A stretch of 32,050 bases of DNA, taken from the sequence record SRR20825010_3850; one strand, written 5' to 3'. Position numbers and translations under genes: made by a program. Below the pieces are notes generated by a model that was not told the origin of the DNA, made no database searches, and saw only the letters and a program-made list of their open reading frames with translations. Below are positions 2,486 to 32,050 of the stretch, piece after piece; positions within the stretch are counted from its first letter, which is position 1; each line of letters begins with the position of its first letter.

Positions 2486-4157
2486 GGCTCTGACTCAATT
2501 TTGGTGCAGTTTCGATGCCCATCCTTGTCAGGACGCTTCAACGAGCCGGGCTCTGAGCAGATCGATGTTCGCCCGGCCATACATCTGGCGCTTGAGGGTC
2601 TTGAGGCGGTTTATCTGTCCTTCGGTCTGCCCGTTCGACCATGGTTCCCTCAGGGCTGCGGCGACCGCAGCCTGATCCCGCCGCAGTCCGCGGGCGAAGG
2701 CACCGAGCAGGCTCTCTTCGGCTTCATCCAACCATGTATCCAATGCGTTTTCGCGAGCATTGCGCACCATGTCTGTGAACCGCTCCGTCAGCCCGCGGGC
2801 TGTGGCAAGGGCAGGTAACGCGGTCTCGATCCTTGCAACCTGGATGGCATCGGCCTTGCTCAGGTGATTCCGGCCCACGGTCAGGAGGCGGGCAATCCTG
2901 CGCGCGGGCGGTGGTTTTCCTGTTCCCGAAGGCACGGTCTGCTCGGCACGGCGCTGGCGTGTCGCCCATTCTCCGACGACACGAAGGCTGCCCTGGAAAC
3001 CGTCGGCTCGCAACCGGCGCCAGAGTTCAGCGCCGTTCCGGCAGCCGCCCGCCCACTCTTGTTCCAGCCTCAGCAACCAAGGGGTCAGGCTGCTCTCGCG
3101 AATACGGAAAACGTCTTCGCGTTCGCCGCGGATGATTTGGCGGACCAGGCCGCGGCTCAGCCCGGTCAAGCGGACAATTCTCCGGATCGGAATACCGCCA
3201 TTGGCCATCTGGCGAACCATTTGATTGGTCTGCTGGCGGCGCTGGAAGCCCTCGTATTGCAGCCTTTCCGCCGCCGTCAGCAGCTTTGGATCAAGTGTCT
3301 TCGCGCCGGTCGCCTTACGGATGGCAGGCATGTTCCGCTGAACCGCAGCCAGGAACGCCGCGCTCGCGTTCTCCAAAAGGTGCCAACGATCTGCAACTTG
3401 AACCGCCCGAGGCAAGGCGCGAGAGACGGCGCCGCCATACCCTCCGTTGCGGTCGCGGGCGACGATCTCGATCTCAGGGCGGGCCCGCAGCCAGGCCTCG
3501 ACCGTGGCAGGTTCCCGATCCGGCAGCAAGTCGATGACCCGACGCCGCTCCAGGTCGCAGATCAAAGTGCCGTATCGCTGCCCTTTGCGCCACGCCCAGT
3601 CGTCGATGCCGACGACGCGGAGCTCGCTGGTCGCGGCCTCGGTCGTGTCTCGAACGCTCCGCAGGAACGTGTCCTTGCTGGCCGGCAGAAGGAGCCGTCC
3701 GGCAAGCGCTTGGGCGGGGCGTCCGCCGAGAGCAAGGCCCAAATGGCGGACCAGCCCTTGCAGGCGAGACGTGCGCCGCGCATGAGGCCGGGTTACGGCA
3801 GGCGAAAACCGTTCCGCGAAAATTTTGGCGGGGCAATGCGTGGCTCGGCATCGAAATCGCCGGACCAACAAGATCAGCTCCACCTTCCGGCCGTGCGCGG
3901 GAAGATCGGCCGGGCGGCGGCGATATCTGCTGTGGACGTGGCGCGAAATCGTGCCACACTGCGGACAGGCCACCGCGGTTTTGGTGGAACGGGAGTGGAC
4001 CCGGATTGTGTTCCCAACCAGTTCGACCTGTTCGGCCTTGAGACCCGCGGGCAGAAAATCCCGTCGAGAAAACCATGACGTCATCGACAATCTCCTCCTA
4101 AGATTGTCAAAATATAGCGTCGGCATGCCGGAACTGCACCAAATCTGCGTCAGAGCC
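2486..4157 (-). mobile_element. ISL3-family insertion sequence (1672 bp)
   Basis: Terminal IRs GGCTCTGACTCAATTTTGGTGCAGTT (from 2486) and GGCTCTGACGCAGATTTGGTGCAGTT (minus strand, from 4157) enclose one transposase. Flanks TGAAGTTT and AATCTTGC are not a direct repeat. Confidence 0.9.
2528..4084 (-). CDS. ISL3-family transposase
   Basis: Zinc finger CPQCG...RRFRC...C, VVGIDDWAWRKGQRYGTLICDLE, ARDR, VADRWHL, SNGQTEGQINRLKTLKRQMYGR. ATG 4084 lies inside the IR and has an AGGAG RBS. Confidence 0.93.
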   Translation of the reverse strand: MTSWFSRRDFLPAGLKAEQVELVGNTIRVHSRSTKTAVACPQCGTISRHVHSRYRRRPADLPAHGRKVELILLVRRFRCRATHCPAKIFAERFSPAVTRPHARRTSRLQGLVRHLGLALGGRPAQALAGRLLLPASKDTFLRSVRDTTEAATSELRVVGIDDWAWRKGQRYGTLICDLERRRVIDLLPDREPATVEAWLRARPEIEIVARDRNGGYGGAVSRALPRAVQVADRWHLLENASAAFLAAVQRNMPAIRKATGAKTLDPKLLTAAERLQYEGFQRRQQTNQMVRQMANGGIPIRRIVRLTGLSRGLVRQIIRGEREDVFRIRESSLTPWLLRLEQEWAGGCRNGAELWRRLRADGFQGSLRVVGEWATRQRRAEQTVPSGTGKPPPARRIARLLTVGRNHLSKADAIQVARIETALPALATARGLTERFTDMVRNARENALDTWLDEAEESLLGAFARGLRRDQAAVAAALREPWSNGQTEGQINRLKTLKRQMYGRANIDLLRARLVEAS

Positions 4158-4290
4158 AATCTTGCATGCCGGTTCACAGACTGGACGCAAGCAGGTCGCG
4201 AAAGAAATTGAGATCTGGTCAAGGGCGAGGATCTGAGCCTCCCCCTTTGAAGTGGTCCGGCCCTATGATTAGGAAACCGGAGGACCAGAG

Positions 4291-4569
4291 ATGGCGATTA
4301 AGAGACCCAAGCCCGAAGAGATTGTAGTGAAGTTGCGGCAGGTTGAAGTTCTGTTGGGGCAAGGCATGGCCCGGATTGATGCGATCAGACAGATCGGGGT
4401 GACTGAACAAACCTATTACCGTTGGAAGAAGAAATACGGTGGAATGGGCACGGAACAACTCAAGGAACTGAAGCGGCTACAGAAAGAGAACGAGCGTCTT
4501 CGGCGGGCTGTTTCCGAGCTGACGTTGGATAAGCTGATCTTGAAGGAAGCGGCTTCGGGAAACTTCTGA
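4291..4569 (+). CDS. IS3-family transposase OrfA (HTH)
   Basis: 92 aa, [19 protein letters not shown]...[17 protein letters not shown]...[10 protein letters not shown] (HTH plus leucine zipper); GGAGG RBS. Confidence 0.92.
4557..4563 (+). other. Programmed -1 ribosomal frameshift heptamer G-GGA-AAC
   Basis: X-XXY-YYZ motif phased to OrfA codons (TCG GGA AAC TTC TGA); a -1 slip joins OrfB. Confidence 0.8.
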
Positions 4570-5417
4570 GCCCCTCTCGCCGCCGTGCTTGTATCGATCA
4601 CTTGCGCAGTCAGATGAAGCTTTCGGAGCGCCGTGTGTGCCGCGTTCTGGGACAGCATCGCTCCACTCAGCGACGGCTGCCGAAGGGGCGTGCTGATGAG
4701 GAACGTCTGGTTGCCGACATGATCGAGCTGACACACCAGTATGGCCGATACGGCTATCGCCGGGTTGCAGCCCTGCTGAGGGAAGCAGGCTGGCAGGTGA
4801 ACGACAAGCGTGTCGAACGGCTGTGGCGTCGGGAGGGGCTGAAAGTGCCAATGAAACAACCTAAGAAGGGGCGGCTTTGGCTGAACGATGGATCATGCGT
4901 CCGGCTGCGGCCTGAGCATCGCAATCACGTCTGGTCATATGACTTCGTGCATCATCGAACGGACGATGGCAGAGCGTTCAGGACACTAAACATACTGGAT
5001 GAATACAGCCGGGAATGTCTGGCGATCCGGGTCAAGCGGAAACTGAACTCGACCGAGGTCATCGATGCGCTGACGGACCTGTTCATCCTGCGTGGCGTGC
5101 CAGCCTATATCAGGTCGGATAATGGCCCGGAGTTCATCGCCGAAGCCGTGCGAAACTGGATCAAAGCCGTCGGTGCCAAGACGGCCTACATTGAGCCAGG
5201 GTCCCCTTGGGAAAACGGATATTGCGAGAGCTTCAACGGGCGAATGCGCGACGAGTTGCTGAATGGAGAAATCTTCTACTCACTCCGCGAGGCGCAAATC
5301 ATCATCGAAGAATGGAGGAAGCACTACAACACCAAGCGGCCACACAGTGCTCTGGGGTACCGCCCACCAGCACCAGAAGCCATCGTCCCGATGGACCAAA
5401 GGCCGACCATGCACTAA
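4560..5417 (+). CDS. IS3-family transposase OrfB (DDE integrase core), expressed through a -1 frameshift
   Basis: [45 protein letters not shown]. The -1 frame is open from the slippery site at 4557-4563. Confidence 0.92.
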
Positions 5418-6139
5418 CTTTCAAACTGGACCACTCAAATGGGGCTGCTCAGATCTCATCCGAGGATCAGCTGGCTTTCTCCAGCATTGTCGAGGACGAG
5501 CTCATCGGACTTCATGCGGGAAACTTCGCGAGGTATCAGCTGCGCCCGTCGGAATTCACCGCATGGCAAGACGCGTGGAACTCGCAATAAAAAGGGGATA
5601 TCCAAGATAACTGGTGAAACCCGGGCGTGCCCGCAAAATCCGAACATCAAAAAATCTGGTTGAAAAGACCTGAGGCCTCAAGCCTTCTCGGCAATAATAT
5701 CCTCGGCAGCGGTCCTTCGCTGCGCGTCGTACCATTTCACACAAACCTGCCGTCGGCCAAGTAGACCGACCTGAATAAGGCTGTCAGGCGGCGAGTTTGT
5801 TGACCTGATCTGTTCGACCGAGCGCGATTTCCGCGTCAGCGATTGAGTAGATTCGACAGATCAGCCGGATTAAATGGCGCAAGACAGCCCTCAGGTGCCT
5901 GAGGATCATACGAATGTTTTGCCCGCATTATCTTCGGGCCTAATTAGGTCGGACTACAAAAAGCTTGAATAACAGTTTTGTTCGGGCGACGGTCCGGACG
6001 TGCTCAACGTCGGCTGGGAAGTTCGGCTGTCGAGAGGCTTTGGGCCTATCACCGCAGGTGATAGTTGACGGCCCAACGGCGCGCCTCTCGCGCTGGTCAT
6101 GATCCCCGCGCTCCGATAAGCAAGCAAAGGAACATTCCC

Positions 6140-26890: not shown

Positions 26891-26934
26891 GCGGCGCTTG
26901 TCTCCATTAGATAACGCCCCAAGCGCCGCTTCTT
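26891..26934 (+). terminator. Possible terminator after glcC
   Basis: GCGGCGCTTG (26891-26900) and CAAGCGCCGC (26920-26929) form a perfect 10-bp stem followed by TTCTT; the loop is long (19 nt). Confidence 0.4.
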
Positions 26935-26946
26935 ACCGCCCTGCTC

Positions 26947-26977
26947 TATGTCCAATAACCTTGCGTTATCGGACGTA
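26947..26977. other. Putative tyrosine-recombinase core site (12-7-12 inverted repeat)
   Basis: TATGTCCAATAA-CCTTGCG-TTATCGGACGTA; arms match at 10/12, with an ATAA-N7-TTAT centre. Confidence 0.6.
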
Positions 26978-27016
26978 AAAATGATATGCTCAAAAACATG
27001 GGTTGTCGCTTTAGTT

Positions 27017-28084
27017 TCATGGCCGGACTCGCCCAAAATCAGCCCTCTCGTCCTCGAAGTTTCCATTCCATCGGGGGACTGGGCTCTTGCTCAATCGCTG
27101 GACTCGTCTTGTGACGATGTCGATCGGGTCCTCTCCCTTGCTGATTGCTGCCCTGCGCCCGTAGGGTGCCCGCGGGATCGGCGCGGCACGTCTGAACAAC
27201 CGCGCGGCCGCCTCAGGCATTGTCGCCATTGGAACCATCCGTTCTCCAAAGAGATCGCCAAGGATAACCAGCGTCAAGACACGCCATCGTACGGAAAGAT
27301 GCTGGAGCGGGGCCGGCGCGCCTACGGCGGCTCGGGCCTCGAAAGGACAGTTCCATCCCTCTTGATCGAACCAAAGCGCCAAGACAGGACGCGCAGCACC
27401 CGCCCGATCAAGCGGTGCCCATAGCGCGCGTATTGTCCGCTCCAAGAGAGCCAGGTGACCCTTATCACCATTGATGATCCGCTCGACCTGCCGCTGAAAC
27501 GTTAGAGTGCCCTCTGTAAATGCCGTGTCTGCACGATCCGCCCGCGCCCCTCCCCTGCCTGTGAGAAGACACTCGCATTTGGCGCAGAACACCCGAAGCA
27601 GACCCGTGCGCAACCTGAACGAAGTCCGCAGGTGGGCACCGCATTCAAGGCAGCGGTCCCGCAGCATCTCTTTGTGAACCGGGCAAACAACCCGTTCAAC
27701 CAACCTCCAATCAGCCCGAATATAGGCGTCCCGCCCCACCGCGACATCCGCATCAAAGCAGGCAAAACATACGGATACACCTCCCCCTCTCGCACTCGAA
27801 ATCCAATCGCGCGGCCGGTTGTGGTGCCTAAATTTCAATGAAAGGCGTTCGAGGCGCGCAGGATCGATCCTGCAGCCCCGCGCCCAAATCTTTAGTAGTT
27901 CCGGGTCAGGCGCTGTGTCATCAATCTGGCGTAGCAACGGTAGGGTATCCCTCTGCCCTGCCATATACGCCGTCATGTCAGGCACCTCCAAACCATAGCG
28001 AGAGGCGACCCGGACCATCCAAGAGGAGAGCAATTCATCCCGAAACGGGCGCGGCGCAACGGGAAGCCGGATCGCTGCTGTCAT
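27017..28084 (-). CDS. tniQ: TniQ-family target-selection protein
   Basis: LPVAPRPFRDELLSSWMVRVA; Cys clusters CFAC, CPVH, LRDRCLECG, CAKC; ATGA overlap with tniB. Confidence 0.9.
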   Translation of the reverse strand: MTAAIRLPVAPRPFRDELLSSWMVRVASRYGLEVPDMTAYMAGQRDTLPLLRQIDDTAPDPELLKIWARGCRIDPARLERLSLKFRHHNRPRDWISSARGGGVSVCFACFDADVAVGRDAYIRADWRLVERVVCPVHKEMLRDRCLECGAHLRTSFRLRTGLLRVFCAKCECLLTGRGGARADRADTAFTEGTLTFQRQVERIINGDKGHLALLERTIRALWAPLDRAGAARPVLALWFDQEGWNCPFEARAAVGAPAPLQHLSVRWRVLTLVILGDLFGERMVPMATMPEAAARLFRRAAPIPRAPYGRRAAISKGEDPIDIVTRRVQRLSKSPVPRWNGNFEDERADFGRVRP

Positions 28085-29016
28085 GCCGAAGCCTGGGGTT
28101 GCGGGGTTTGGCGCGGCCGACGGCGATTGCTCTGCGTCATCGACACCAGCGGCAGTACTAGATCATCTCCGAAACTCTTGGCGTCGAGTCTCTCCCGGCC
28201 AGAGTGAACGGCTGCTTCCGCCGCGGTCTCGATCAAACGGAATATGCGCGCCGTTACACCAGAGGTCAGCGCATGGACCCGTGCCCTGGTCGCGGTGCCC
28301 GTCAGATCGGACGGCTCGCGCAGCGGCAGGATGTGCCCGAGGCTTTTCAGAAGTCCGGCAAAGACGGCATCGTTCTTCCAGGGCTTGAGGTGAAACGCTT
28401 CGAACCGCTCCGCCAATTGCGCATCCGTCAGCAATGCCTGGCGGGCGAGGTCGGTCCCTGCGCAGACCAGGGGAATCCGCAGATCGTTGGCGAGGAATCT
28501 TATGGCATTGAGGAAAATCCGCTGCTGCCTATATGTCCCGGCCAGCATGCCGTTCACCTCGTCGAGAATGATCATCTTCGCCCCGACCGTTCGCAGCAGC
28601 GAGCGGCAGACATCTTTCTCGCGGGCCAATGTGCCCCCGGCCATTGCCGGCGCGCCCATACTGGACAGCAATTCGCGGTAAAGATCCCGCTCGATCGGCT
28701 CGGAGGGTACTTGTGCAACCACCACTGGGCGATGATCGACGCCGGTTACCTGACAGAACTTTGGCGGGTGATCACGTTCAAACTTGCGCACGATCTTGGT
28801 CTTACCCATGCCTGTGTCGCCATAGATCAGCAGACAGGGCATCCGGTCGCGCGGCGGATAGGTAAGCAAGTTTTCAAGGCGTCCAAGCGCCAATCCCGCC
28901 TGATCGAAGCCGATCCAGCGGTCAGCCCTGATCCAGGCAATACGCTCTTCGTCCGAAAGGGCAGCGAACCGTCGATAGTTCGGATCGAGATGTGCGAACT
29001 CCCCTGCCCCGCTCAC
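28081..29016 (-). CDS. tniB: TniB-family AAA+ ATPase (TnsC-like)
   Basis: DRWIG, PRDRMPCLLIYGDTGMGKT (Walker A), MIILDE (Walker B), LANDLRIPLVCAGT, DAQLAERF; GTGA overlap with tniA. Confidence 0.93.
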   Translation of the reverse strand: MSGAGEFAHLDPNYRRFAALSDEERIAWIRADRWIGFDQAGLALGRLENLLTYPPRDRMPCLLIYGDTGMGKTKIVRKFERDHPPKFCQVTGVDHRPVVVAQVPSEPIERDLYRELLSSMGAPAMAGGTLAREKDVCRSLLRTVGAKMIILDEVNGMLAGTYRQQRIFLNAIRFLANDLRIPLVCAGTDLARQALLTDAQLAERFEAFHLKPWKNDAVFAGLLKSLGHILPLREPSDLTGTATRARVHALTSGVTARIFRLIETAAEAAVHSGRERLDAKSFGDDLVLPLVSMTQSNRRRPRQTPQPQASA

Positions 29017-30656
29017 GACCATTCCTCCACTTCGAAACTGGGCACATTGAGGATGTCACCAGATTCTGCATGTTCAAGGTCGTTTTCTTCGATCGCGGCA
29101 GGCTCGACGTTAGCCAGTGCCCGATCTCGCCGTTCCGCAAATCGTCTGGCTTCCCGCGTTTTGCCTGATGCGGCATCAACCAAGGCCCGCTGCTCTTCGA
29201 TCACTGCGAAAATCAGCTCTTCGTCCTCTAGCGATCGACCCCGCTGGCGCAGAACTGTCTGCGCGCGGCGATGCTCTGCCAAAGTGATCGGAGGGTGCCG
29301 CAGATCGGCAAACCGCACAGGGTATCGCTGACCATCCGGGCCCCGCACGAACACGGTGGACAGGTCCCGTGGATCGTAGGACACACGCAACTGTCGCCCC
29401 TGCCTGCCAGCCCAAATACTCAGAACATCGTCCCAGTATCTTAGGCCGAACAGGTGGATACCATCGCGGCGCACCATACGTTCGACAGCAGGCAGAAAGT
29501 CGATCCGAAACCCTTCTGGATCATAGGGGTGTCGCAAGGCCGCATCGCGTCTCTGAACGGCCTCCTGCCAAGCCGCAATCGGTGGAATACCCAAGGATCG
29601 GTGCCGTTCAGCATGATAACGGGTGATTTCAAGAGCAAACCACCGCTCCAGCTCATCCCGCGTCATCGACGAATTTGCTACAGAGTCATAGTCACCACGG
29701 TCTTTGATGTTGCTAAATGTCGACCCGGGCAGCAAATGTGCCGCCCCCATCATCGTTCCGATCAGCCGCTCGATATGACCGCCGTAATGTGGCGATCCGA
29801 TCGGTCGGTACTGCAGCGAAATCCCATGTTCTTCAGCACCACGCCGCATTGCCTTTGAGCGGAACTCCTTGGCGTTATCGACATGAATGGTCTCAGGTAA
29901 CCCCGACGTCGGCCAGTTTGCATCAATGCCCAAACCGTCCAGCCAATCCAGTTTGGGCTGCACAAGATGTTGGACCGCCAAAGAAACCGACAAGGCTGAT
30001 GGCGGTTCCAGTGTCAGATAAAACCCAGCAACCATACGGCTGGCAATGTCGATGGCCAGCGTCACCCAAGGCCTTTGCAGGGGCTTGCGGTGGGAACGGT
30101 CTACAACGATGACATCCACCAAAGTGTGATCGATCTGGACAACCTCGAAAGCCCGCTCAATCCGATAGGTTCCGGCGACAGGATGATAACGACTACGGGC
30201 TGCCTTGGCCCCCTCGCGGGCCGCCACCAATTCGGCAGGGTCTATCGCGGCTACACGGTCGCGGACAGAGGTCCAGCACGGAGCGCGCAGGCCCTGTTGA
30301 CCGCAACGCCTGCGCACTTCCTTGTACAACGCATTGATGCTCGGCTTCTGACGGGACTTGAAGAAGTCCTCAATTGCCGCTGCAATCACGGCCTCGATCG
30401 CTGCCGGCAACCGCCTGCTGCCCGTTTGGGTCCCCGGCGCGCCTGTCAGGAGAGAACTGGTGATCGGCCGCGCCTTATAAGCTCTGATTAGATCGTAAAG
30501 ACGGGATCGTTTGAGACCAAGTTCCCGGCAGGCCGAGAGGAATTCGCGGCGATTAGGTTTGGCCATGCTCGCCAGCCTTCGTATCACTCCTTCACGCGCA
30601 ACCGCCTGTTCCCATGCCGCATCATCTACGGCGTTGATGTCTGAGCGATCCACCAT
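29013..30656 (-). CDS. tniA: TniA/TnsB-like DDE transposase with Mu C-terminal domain
   Basis: VQIDHTLVD, RPWVTLAIDIASR, IHVDNAKEF, RPIGSPHYGGHIER, PGSTFSN, YDPRDLS; ATG 30656. Confidence 0.93.
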   Translation of the reverse strand: MVDRSDINAVDDAAWEQAVAREGVIRRLASMAKPNRREFLSACRELGLKRSRLYDLIRAYKARPITSSLLTGAPGTQTGSRRLPAAIEAVIAAAIEDFFKSRQKPSINALYKEVRRRCGQQGLRAPCWTSVRDRVAAIDPAELVAAREGAKAARSRYHPVAGTYRIERAFEVVQIDHTLVDVIVVDRSHRKPLQRPWVTLAIDIASRMVAGFYLTLEPPSALSVSLAVQHLVQPKLDWLDGLGIDANWPTSGLPETIHVDNAKEFRSKAMRRGAEEHGISLQYRPIGSPHYGGHIERLIGTMMGAAHLLPGSTFSNIKDRGDYDSVANSSMTRDELERWFALEITRYHAERHRSLGIPPIAAWQEAVQRRDAALRHPYDPEGFRIDFLPAVERMVRRDGIHLFGLRYWDDVLSIWAGRQGRQLRVSYDPRDLSTVFVRGPDGQRYPVRFADLRHPPITLAEHRRAQTVLRQRGRSLEDEELIFAVIEEQRALVDAASGKTREARRFAERRDRALANVEPAAIEENDLEHAESGDILNVPSFEVEEWS

Positions 30657-30681
30657 GGCCAAAACCCACAAAAAGGTATCT

Positions 30682-30719
30682 TATGTCCGATAATGAAACT
30701 ATAATCCGGGAATGAAACA
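30682..30719. repeat. Tandem transposase-binding-like repeats overlapping a recombinase-type half-site, between tniA and the recombinase gene
   Basis: GTCCGATAATGAAACT (30685) and ATCCGGGAATGAAACA (30704) at 19-bp period; TATGTCCGATAA at 30682-30693. Confidence 0.6.
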
Positions 30720-30757
30720 GAAACATGAATATAATAATATCAATGGGTTAGATTCCA

Positions 30758-31915
30758 ATGATGAAACAAGAACGACAGGTTAGTCTCACAAATAACAGCA
30801 CCAAAATCGCGGGTTCTTACGGGTCTGAGTCTGAGATTTCGAGCTCAGCACCTAATACCGCGCCGAACAGTGACGAGCGCGACGAGAGAACCTCTCGGGA
30901 CGGAGCCTCAATCGCTCTGCCCGCTCATGTGGCCGGCTCCGGCTCGCTCGACCGGCTGATCGACACCGCCCGTGGCTACGCCGAGGCCTCGACAGCCGGG
31001 AACACGAACAAGGCCTATGCGGCCGACTGGAAACACTTCAGCCGCTGGTGCCGGTTGAAAGGCACGGAACCTCTACCCCCTGCGCCCGAGATGATTGGAC
31101 TTTATGTGGCTGATCTGGCTGCACCAACCGGGAAGGCCCCTGCCCTTTCGGTCTCCACGATCGAGCGCCGTCTCTCGGGGCTTGCCTGGAACTACAGGCA
31201 GCGCGGGTTCACTCTTGATCGCAAGGACCGGCACATCGCCACCGTTCTGGCCGGGATCAAACGCAAGCATGCGCGCCCGCCGGTCCAGAAGGAAGCGATC
31301 TTGCCTGAGGACATCCAGGCCATGGTGGCCACCCTTCCTTTCGATCTCCGCGGGCTTCGAGACCGGGCGATCTTGCTTCTGGGCTATGCAGGCGGCCTGC
31401 GCCGGTCGGAGGTAGTCAGCCTCGACATACACAAGGATGATACACCGGACACCGGCGGCTGGCTCGAGATCTTCGACAAAGGCGCGCTGCTGACGCTTAA
31501 CGCCAAGACCGGGTGGCGCGAGGTCGAGGTCGGGCGCGGCTCAAGCGACCAGACCTGTCCCGTCCACGCGCTTGAGCAATGGCTACACTTCGGAAGCATC
31601 GACTTTGGGCCGGTCTTCGTGCGCATCTCCCGGGATGGCAAAAGCGCCCTCGAGGCGCGCCTCTCCGATAAGCACGTCGCGCGACTGATCAAAGCGACCG
31701 TTCTAAAAAGCGGCGTCAGGTCCGATCTGCCGGAAGCCAAACGGCTGGCAATGTTCTCCGGCCATTCCTTACGCGCCGGGCTCGCCTCGTCGGCAGAGGT
31801 TGATGAGCGCTATGTTCAAAAGCAACTCGGCCATGCGTCGGCCGAGATGACCCGGCGCTATCAGCGCAGGCGCGAAAGGTTCAGGGTGAACCTGACCAAA
31901 GCCGCAGGGCTGTGA
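30758..31915 (+). CDS. Tyrosine recombinase/integrase (Cre-like, with SAM-like N-terminal domain)
   Basis: NTNKAYAADW.HF..WC; LRDRAILLLGYAGGLRRSE (R), AKT (K), GHSLRAG (HxxR), LGHAS..MT.RY (H, Y). Confidence 0.93.
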   Translation: MMKQERQVSLTNNSTKIAGSYGSESEISSSAPNTAPNSDERDERTSRDGASIALPAHVAGSGSLDRLIDTARGYAEASTAGNTNKAYAADWKHFSRWCRLKGTEPLPPAPEMIGLYVADLAAPTGKAPALSVSTIERRLSGLAWNYRQRGFTLDRKDRHIATVLAGIKRKHARPPVQKEAILPEDIQAMVATLPFDLRGLRDRAILLLGYAGGLRRSEVVSLDIHKDDTPDTGGWLEIFDKGALLTLNAKTGWREVEVGRGSSDQTCPVHALEQWLHFGSIDFGPVFVRISRDGKSALEARLSDKHVARLIKATVLKSGVRSDLPEAKRLAMFSGHSLRAGLASSAEVDERYVQKQLGHASAEMTRRYQRRRERFRVNLTKAAGL

Positions 31916-31939
31916 AGCTCAGGAATCTTGACGCGTTGG

Positions 31940-31970
31940 TGAAGCGCTAAGATGAAATTCCAGCGCTTCA
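31940..31970. terminator. Inverted repeat downstream of the recombinase
   Basis: TGAAGCGCT-N13-AGCGCTTCA followed by GTTT. Confidence 0.35.
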
Positions 31971-32050
31971 GTTTCAGCTTACTGCTTCAATTGAAATCGG
32001 GAGCTAAACGCGACACCACAGGTCGTCCTCAGACGTCTCTTCAAGCCCCT

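Follow-up and report, generated by a model that had tools for sequence, protein, structure and literature searches.

The stretch of DNA considered here, hereafter the window, comprises 32,050 nucleotides of sequence record SRR20825010_3850. Towards its right-hand end lie the transposition genes tniQ, tniB and tniA, a gene for a Cre-like tyrosine recombinase, and, on the far side of tniQ, a 29-bp palindrome that will be referred to as pal (Table 1). Comparison with related loci identifies tniA, tniB and tniQ as a 3.77-kb transposon inserted between pal and the recombinase gene. A preliminary description of the window had taken positions 27004 to 32015 as one transposon that carries the tyrosine recombinase as its resolvase.

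Table 1. Features of the tni transposon, its target site and the adjoining recombinase gene (window coordinates)
Feature	Position	Strand	Details
Target palindrome, pal	26948..26976		ATGTCCAATAA-CCTTGCG-TTATCGGACGT; 11-7-11, 29 bp; outside the transposon
Pal-transposon spacer	26977..27003		27 nt; sequence not conserved
Left duplication copy	26999..27003		TGGGT; last 5 nt of the spacer
Transposon proper	27004..30777	-	3,774 bp; tniA-tniB-tniQ only
tniQ-side (L) terminal repeat	27004..27027	+	TGTCGCTTTAGTTTCATGGCCGGA; contains the tniQ stop codon
tniQ	27017..28084	-	355 aa; presumed target selector; Pfam TniQ, E 1.8e-12, residues 8-141
tniB	28081..29022	-	313 aa; AAA+ regulator; Pfam TniB, E 6.6e-67
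tniA	29013..30671	-	DDE transposase with Mu-type C-terminal domain; Pfam rve, Mu-transpos_C, HTH_Tnp_Mu_2
Perfect pal half-site within the transposon	30683..30693	+	ATGTCCGATAA; overlaps the innermost of the R-end repeats; 27 nt upstream of the tniA ATG
tniA-side (R) end	30686..30777	+	three 19-nt repeats at 30686, 30705 and 30754
Cre-like tyrosine recombinase	30758..31915	+	385 aa as now read; Pfam Phage_integrase; head-to-head with tniA
Right flank	30778..30782		GGTTA; degenerate TGGGT copy (one base lost, one changed)
Imperfect palindrome	31940..31989		3' of the recombinase gene; may be a terminator or an accessory site

The three tni genes that had been described earlier are borne out by their Pfam matches, and their coupling by their overlaps. 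The genes tniB and tniQ overlap in ATGA, and tniA and tniB overlap at ATGGTCGTGA, by 10 nt with an ATG start of tniB or by 4 nt (the GTGA of the preliminary description) with a GTG start. The likely start of tniA is the ATG at 30656, which gives a protein of 547 aa as in annotated relatives (length from L010, the locus numbers being our own). TniA is approximately 41% identical, across 90% of its length, to the product of the tniA found in a mer-tniA-tniB-IS1326-sul1 context on a Salmonella plasmid, which we take to be Tn21/In2. An Achromobacter plasmid (H79) was considered as a stand-in for Tn402 and dropped, its tniA-like gene being a lone one. NCBIfam gave no family for TniQ or TniB and only sub-threshold IS481/IS3 matches for TniA. 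TniQ has conserved Cys/His positions; an AlphaFold2 model of the protein calculated from 20 sequences had a mean pLDDT of 41.5, too low for a fold search. Damaged or shortened forms of tniQ occur among the relatives: the gene is split in two in L010 (a copy 1 nt longer), frameshifted in L059, and stopped four codons early in L021-L024. As had been reported, no tnsA, cas or tniR gene was seen inside the unit or among the open reading frames (ORFs) of the window that were scanned, namely the three tni genes, the recombinase gene, three ORFs of the left flank and 16 of the 23 ORFs of at least 150 aa listed for positions 1-24000.

The head-to-head recombinase had been credited with a full catalytic set, and this holds. 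In 29 homologues, R216, K250, H336, R339 and Y368 never vary, and H359 hardly does. Its best solved relative is Cre, by a weak match (28.7 bits, E 6e-6, aligned residues 82-344). Like Cre, the protein has the R-K-H-R-H-Y set and is predicted to have two domains; unlike Cre, it begins with a variable and poorly conserved tail of about 50 residues, and its presumed site has an 11-7-11 layout as against the 13-8-13 of loxP.

For comparison, relatives were collected by a TniQ-profile scan with one genome per species, which yielded 50 loci, and these were supplemented by the nearest genome (G001) and by public records. Such an alignment of homologous loci had been proposed for fixing the ends and finding target site duplications. 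The ends of the mobile unit fall at 27004 and 30777 by this comparison, and perfect 5-bp duplications lie directly around the tniABQ unit in 6 of the 35 copies with both flanks (L010, L012, L019, L024, L070, L082), although the window's own duplication is imperfect. The unit holds three ORFs only; neither cargo nor a resolvase was found inside it by ORF list and Pfam, and the earlier statement that cargo is lacking thus stands. The transposon ends read TGTCG...CGACA and carry GTTTCAT-N4-GGA repeats. The left terminus TGTCGC at 27004 had been placed correctly, as had the tniQ stop codon within the terminal repeat, in which it lies inside the terminal 24-mer. A weaker second copy of the L-end repeat lies at 27083-27106. 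At the R end the terminal 24-mer occupies 30754-30777, reads ...TCCAATGATGAAACAAGAACGACA and closes in ...CGACA at 30777; it is identical to its L counterpart at 17 of 24 positions. A promoter-like site facing tniA is located on the minus strand within the R end (30758->30731).

Unoccupied sites confirm the interval. The matches of four plasmid records (H14-H17) to the window fall into two pieces, from about 26921-26948 onward and up to 32015-32022, and since these matches span approximately 1.3 kb of record they leave no room for the 3.77-kb unit. Only in H14 was the precise junction read; there 27003 is joined straight to 30778 in the sequence ...CATGGGTAGTCTC... (also given as ...AAAAACATGGGTAGTCTCAC...). 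Three further places in G001 (L003, L006, L008) have pal-recombinase modules that are unoccupied as far as these loci extend. Among the 50 loci, contigs made of the transposon alone were found, which is how multicopy repeats assemble. Both ends of contigs L017, L028, L042 and L045 lie at, or at most 22 nt from, the two transposon termini, with L017 being exactly 3,774 bp from terminus to terminus, and contigs L041 and L055 start at the tniA-side terminus.

The transposon and the recombinase also differ in their histories. Two loci titled Sulfitobacter sp. HI0040 (L016) and Pseudooceanicola batsensis (L019) have transposons that differ from the window copy at 2 and 3 of 3,774 bases, respectively, beside recombinases that are 78% and 75% identical to that of the window. 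The converse is seen in SK025 (L011), where the recombinase is 91% identical and TniA of the adjoining transposon is 80.5% identical. In number too, the families are far apart, with the recombinase family present in 723 alphaproteobacterial plasmid records (E <= 1e-40) and the TniQ family in 45 plasmid records (E <= 1e-20). Given the empty sites, the unit-only contigs, the 75-78% identical recombinases beside near-identical transposons and the perfect duplications around tniABQ, the recombinase and pal belong to the backbone of the target plasmid, and the comparison shows that transposon and recombinase move independently.

The same findings bear on the 5-kb transposon (27004-32015) of the preliminary description, with its own tyrosine resolvase and TGTCGC...GCGACA termini. 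The linkage of recombinase and tni genes that this model called for is almost always present. By script, 32 of 35 non-redundant loci have an opposite-strand recombinase homologue whose start is no more than 900 bp from the R end, and the number is 33 if L013 is counted, whose match begins inside the R end; the homologue is missing from L059 and from the inner copy of a tandem pair at L052. Homology to many plasmids does end at 32015, and the 6-nt inverted match is present. Yet empty sites hold the recombinase and pal without tni genes, repeat-collapsed contigs stop at the position equivalent to 30777, perfect duplications flank only the 3.77-kb unit, and near-identical tni units adjoin divergent recombinases. 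In addition, the supposed terminus at 32010-32015 is without end repeats, and its resemblance to the left end amounts to an 11-nt gapped match that was equalled by 48 of 500 shuffled sequences. A 5-kb element is therefore very improbable, and GCGACA at 32010-32015 is the sharp edge of the recombinase module and not a transposon end. Among the matches listed, the homology breaks off at 32015 or a few bases from it (query 6016-6031), just past ...AAACGCGACA; the boundary region in L009 is 4290-4300, and the nearest genome has one extra A at this point.

What is constant about the insertions is their relation to pal. Of 34 non-redundant loci, 27 have the L end 27 nt from pal, three have it at 28 nt, one at 30 nt and one at 51 nt, and two (L050 and the outer member of the L052 tandem pair) lack pal. 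Conservation amounts to about 2 bits per position in pal and to 0-0.9 bits in the spacer and at the insertion point. The orientation is identical in every copy examined. Both the 27-nt spacing and the orientation recur on plasmids of Nitrobacter hamburgensis, Rhizobium and Shinella, where TniQ is only 46-49% identical. A vapBC pair separates the insertion from the recombinase gene on the plasmids of Nitrobacter and Rhizobium, so that the fixed reference is pal and not the recombinase start codon. The comparison thus establishes insertion that is specific for both site and orientation.

Core sites of tyrosine recombinases usually have this form, an 11-7-11 inverted repeat beside the gene. From its position and conservation, pal is presumed to be the core site of the Cre-like recombinase, and the two together would constitute a plasmid multimer-resolution or recombination module. 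On Bosea, Bradyrhizobium and Methylocystis plasmids that are unoccupied and encode recombinases 61-67% identical, pal lies 20-127 nt before the annotated start. When four matches at even steps down the recombinase ranking (61-67% identity) were checked for their setting, all four had the recombinase between a divergent DUF1403(-scpB) neighbour (replaced by the transposon in Shinella) and, further downstream, repC; three of them were unoccupied. Thus, pal is set before the Cre-like recombinase gene in a maintenance region of alphaproteobacterial plasmids, between divergent DUF1403-scpB and replication/partition genes. Such a gene beside a palindromic core site, next to replication and partition genes, is presumably comparable to ResD/rfsF-like multimer-resolution systems. 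In Nitrobacteraceae (L065, 6797-6825; L076, 2343-2371), pal has matching changes in both arms, ACGACCGATAA ... TTATCGGTCGT (ACGACC...GGTCGT), and since these paired changes preserve the symmetry, they agree with binding by a dimeric protein that varies together with its site.

At some pal sites, two or three transposons of the family stand head-to-tail (L052, 801-8327; L080, 2429-11050; L082, around 1770). A 5-nt separation of the stacked units was read in L052 and L082, with L080 taken from annotation only. Repeated insertion at one pal site suggests that target immunity is weak or absent.

Tn5053 relatives target the res sites of serine resolvases, according to the relevant sections of PMC11406308, and a serine resolvase is in fact found nearby in some relatives. 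A Resolvase-domain ORF (E ~1e-40) lies about 300-400 bp past the recombinase gene in L001 (338-1222, on the G001 contig beyond the window), similar genes are present in L009 (4389-5216) and L011 (8123-9001), others follow a toxin-antitoxin pair in L070 and L071, and in L067, where TniQ is 31% identical, the locus abuts a serine recombinase. The transposon might then be a classical res-site hunter drawn by the serine enzyme beyond the tyrosine recombinase. This is hardly credible, as the serine recombinase gene is absent from L012, L013, L014, L069, L072, L065 and L066, which have replication or toxin-antitoxin genes in its place, and where present it is more than 1.3 kb from the insertion, while the invariant neighbour is pal at 27 nt. 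As an inconsistent neighbour, the serine recombinase was rejected as the true target.

Information on how cointegrates would be resolved was sought in four strains with two identical or near-identical copies on different plasmids. Three of the four pairs present one pattern: Sulfitobacter SK012 (L010/L069), Pseudohalocynthiibacter (L070/L071) and Salipiger profundus (L012/L072). Within these pairs the transposons have no mismatches in two cases and a 1-nt length difference in the third. The first copy of each pair has a perfect duplication, and the second shares the pal, spacer and duplication of the first, being identical to it from pal's left edge as far as the transposon (roughly 56-60 nt). 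Left of pal the second copies diverge, in L012/L072 already at the second base of the left arm, and from the first base past the tniA-side end their sequence is unrelated. By this comparison, the exchange points lie at pal in all three pairs. The shared pal-side stretch and the foreign outer flanks fit replicative transposition followed by a crossover between direct pal repeats, through which the target plasmid would gain the donor's pal half, spacer, old duplication and transposon, followed by its own recombinase side. A further pair is that of Vannielia litorea (L048/L053), whose copies are located on one 259-kb contig, 133 kb apart and in the same orientation, with 11 mismatches. One CCCCA duplication is divided between the two copies, as in an unresolved cointegrate.

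From these data, the locus is probably that of a 3.77-kb transposon of the Tn5053/Tn402 branch that is free of cargo and of a resolvase, inserts in fixed orientation 27 nt from pal, and outsources the resolution of its cointegrates to the recombinase of the target plasmid. TniQ would direct insertion by recognizing pal, either as DNA or as a bent site occupied by the recombinase. Since there is no TnsA, transposition would be replicative and would fuse donor and target plasmids, so that cointegrate resolution would be needed. Every copy lies beside pal in one orientation, and each cointegrate would therefore contain pal twice, as a direct repeat. Resolution of these repeats could be left to the recombinase of the plasmid, the transposon thus making use of a resolution site 27 nt outside its end; homologous recombination between the two transposon copies would be a second route. 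All of this evidence is comparative, and the activity of the recombinase on pal, the binding of pal or of the recombinase by TniQ and the formation of cointegrates are inferred from it. The preliminary description had also assigned cointegrate resolution to the tyrosine recombinase. That chain of functions is supported by the near-constant adjacency of recombinase and tni genes and by the three pairs that cross over at pal; it is the ownership of the enzyme by the element that does not hold.

Several observations weigh against this interpretation. The window's duplication is imperfect (TGGGT / GGTTA), a perfect one is missing in 29 of the 35 two-flank copies, and several junctions are odd: L016 and L011 have duplications of 7 bp, and L023 has one-base shifts. 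Exceptions to the rule are the absence of an R-side recombinase in L059, the absence of pal in L050 and the distance of 51 nt, in place of 27 nt, between pal and the Vannielia insertion L053. The fourth same-strain pair, Shinella L081/L082, lacks the donor-spacer pattern: there is one perfect TGCCG duplication beside an older remnant, while the other copy has its own spacer and mismatched flanks. The near-identical copies of the window, L016 and L019, which belong to different genera, likewise each have their own spacer, and those events were therefore not resolved at pal. From these spacers and the Shinella pair it follows that resolution inside the transposon, presumably by RecA, also occurs. 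Finally, the identical 29-bp pal is the sole stretch near the junctions long enough for RecA, and the crossovers are thus no proof of site-specific recombination. We had predicted transport of the pal-side spacer with the transposon from genome to genome; in the window, L016 and L019 it was not seen, and it was observed within strains only.

An alternative is plain attachment-site targeting in which the recombinase plays no part: TniQ would bind pal as DNA in the manner that TnsD binds glmS, pal would be no more than a conserved plasmid landmark, RecA would resolve the cointegrates, and the chimeric flanks would result from homologous exchange between plasmids that have pal and transposon copies in common. 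In accord with this alternative, pal is nearly invariant while the adjoining recombinases range from 65 to 100% identity, perfect duplications are found in six of 35 copies, the most recent inter-genus copies have their own spacers, and the Shinella pair fits resolution within the transposon. Most TniQ proteins, moreover, have C-terminal DNA-binding domains (from sections of PMC11406308). It does not readily account for exchange exactly at pal in three of the four same-strain pairs when the left flank is homologous too, and 29 bp of palindrome barely suffice for RecA. In Nitrobacter the distance of 27 nt is kept to a pal with two altered arm positions, which is easier to explain by the sensing of a pal-bound protein and leans weakly in that direction. 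The alternative also leaves the fixed orientation, and with it the direct pal repeats, without a use. On these grounds, plain attachment-site targeting is considered unlikely.

A stronger form of the outsourcing interpretation can be put forward tentatively, with somewhat less than even confidence, in which the transposon is an obligate parasite of plasmid multimer resolution. TniQ would sense only the bent pal that is occupied by recombinase, which would make the recombinase a counterpart, acting in trans, of TnsF and of res sites occupied by a resolvase, and the transposon would have lost its own resolvase because the host recombinase can resolve direct pal repeats. Individual hops could drag along the pal half-site, the spacer and the old duplication, and the expression of recombinase and transposase may be tied.

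The last suggestion arises from the effect of the insertion on the recombinase gene, which is thereby severed from the DNA upstream of it. Without the transposon, the recombinase has its annotated start at the ATG of CATGGGT, and the native gene begins at the insertion point. In the window, the first 20 nt of the ORF (ATGATGAAACAAGAACGACA) are transposon DNA. In L012, where the same site is occupied with TGGGT intact on both sides of the transposon, the terminal A of the transposon together with the TGGGT duplication restores the recombinase ATG. The right copy in the window is GGTTA, with the result that an ATG in the transposon end (30758) is in frame and the ORF begins MMKQERQ. A frame continuing from the transposon end is found in 10 of 30 distinct recombinase sequences from genome-contig loci; about one third would be expected by chance. 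On the other side, the transposon contains the pal half-site given in Table 1, and with one mismatch allowed 35 of 36 copies have this half-site at the corresponding position, 84-85 nt from the terminus. Together with the adjoining bases, the half-site resembles the right half and part of the centre of pal at about 15-16 of 17 positions by manual count. From this resemblance, TniA could read pal, or the recombinase could read the transposon end or regulate tniA. Replacement of the upstream region and often of the start codon, together with a half-site at the tniA promoter, may couple the expression of recombinase and transposase.

Among known systems, Tn5053/Tn402 provides the closest comparison. 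Shared features are a DDE transposase TniA with a Mu-type C-terminus, TniB, TniQ, coupled genes and the lack of TnsA, as well as TGT...ACA ends with internal repeats, 5-bp duplications and insertion in one orientation at plasmid resolution loci. The targeting of plasmid resolution sites by Tn5053, and replicative transposition for TnsA-less relatives, are established in the passages of PMC11406308 drawn on here. The present transposon differs in having neither tniR nor an internal res, the nearest Resolvase domain being outside and beyond the recombinase. It is only 3.77 kb and cargo-free, and its target, from which it keeps a constant distance of 27 nt, is an 11-7-11 palindrome presumed to belong to a Cre-like recombinase. 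An external site appears to serve for resolution, and the res sites of serine resolvases are not hunted. Membership in the Tn5053/Tn402 branch thus follows from gene content and ends, with two defining features of the branch (TniR/res and serine res targets) lacking. Of the distinct Tn5053/Tn7-like family with a tyrosine resolvase that had been proposed, the functional idea is partly right, but the resolvase is not carried.

In the broad sense the transposon is also Tn7-like, with a TnsB/TnsC/TniQ-type core and arrays of transposase sites at both ends. It differs from cut-and-paste Tn7-like elements, as the unit has no TnsA ORF and flank patterns of the cointegrate type are seen. Tn7-like elements that lack TnsA frequently possess a resolvase of the tyrosine or serine type, as stated in the consulted part of Benler et al. 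2021 (PMC8649781), and with such elements already published, the headline of the preliminary description would lack novelty even with a correct anatomy.

Cooperation between TniQ and a protein with the tyrosine-recombinase fold has a precedent in Tn6022 and AbaR-type elements. In PMC10293859 and PMC11014353, the TniQ of Tn6022 binds or works with TnsF, a catalytically dead DNA binder of that fold, and Faure et al. argue there that DNA bending by TnsF-like proteins attracts TnsC. For the present transposon such cooperation would be by analogy, whereas in Tn6022 it was demonstrated. TnsF is element-borne, inactive and directed to comM, and Tn6022 has TnsA and moves by cut-and-paste; the recombinase here appears active by its residues and is encoded by the target plasmid.

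CRISPR-associated transposons (CASTs) of type V-K resemble the transposon in having no TnsA and no resolvase of their own and in forming cointegrates, and Tn5469 resembles it in having no cargo and a single TniQ (both from parts of PMC11406308). V-K CASTs differ in being targeted by a guide RNA and no dedicated cointegrate resolution is known for them, and Tn5469 is without evident site specificity. In the Tn3 family, TnpI/IRS and TnpS-TnpT/rst likewise combine replicative transposition with resolution by a tyrosine recombinase. There, recombinase and site are inside the element and the transposase is of Tn3 type; no transposase of that type was detected here with Pfam.

No publication was found on tniABQ elements beside tyrosine recombinases in plasmids of Roseobacter or Rhizobiales, in a search that could have missed passing mentions of TniQ and did not cover the supplements of Benler 2021 and Faure 2023. 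Three parts of the present description were likewise not found in print: homing to the core site of a tyrosine recombinase, the absence of a resolvase, and crossovers at an external site. The question of how Tn5053-type res hunters recognize sites occupied by a recombinase reportedly dates from Minakhina et al. 1999. With three genes, a 29-bp site, an offset of 27 nt and one orientation, the family offers a very small natural test system for it. If resolution is outsourced as proposed, this would be a third solution to the cointegrate problem for TnsA-less Tn7-like elements, beside a resolvase of their own and RecA. It would also be relevant to the engineering of type V-K CASTs, for which cointegrates are a drawback. 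A mechanism would thereby be offered for plasmid fusion and the exchange of backbone segments between co-resident plasmids of the Roseobacter group and Rhizobiales.

The surroundings of the module vary. A divergent DUF1403 gene lies on the far side of pal in L009, L010, L012, L013, L065, L066, L069-L072, L075, L076 and L078, whose hosts are Roseobacter-group and Rhizobiales plasmids. In 11 of the 13 loci scpB comes after it; L013 ends at the record edge and L076 has no scpB annotated. No mention of DUF1403 was found in the literature searched. Downstream of the tyrosine recombinase the content changes from plasmid to plasmid, with a serine recombinase in some and repC or toxin-antitoxin genes in others. 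In the window, a GntR/FCD regulator takes the place of the DUF1403 neighbour from about 26930 leftwards, and elsewhere the window has genes for transporters and oxidoreductases, for a GntR regulator and for two insertion sequence (IS) transposases. The latter are an ISL3-family transposase ORF at 2528-4222 (-), in a stretch of 66% G+C, and an IS3-family integrase-core ORF at 4602-5417 (+), both unrelated to the transposon.

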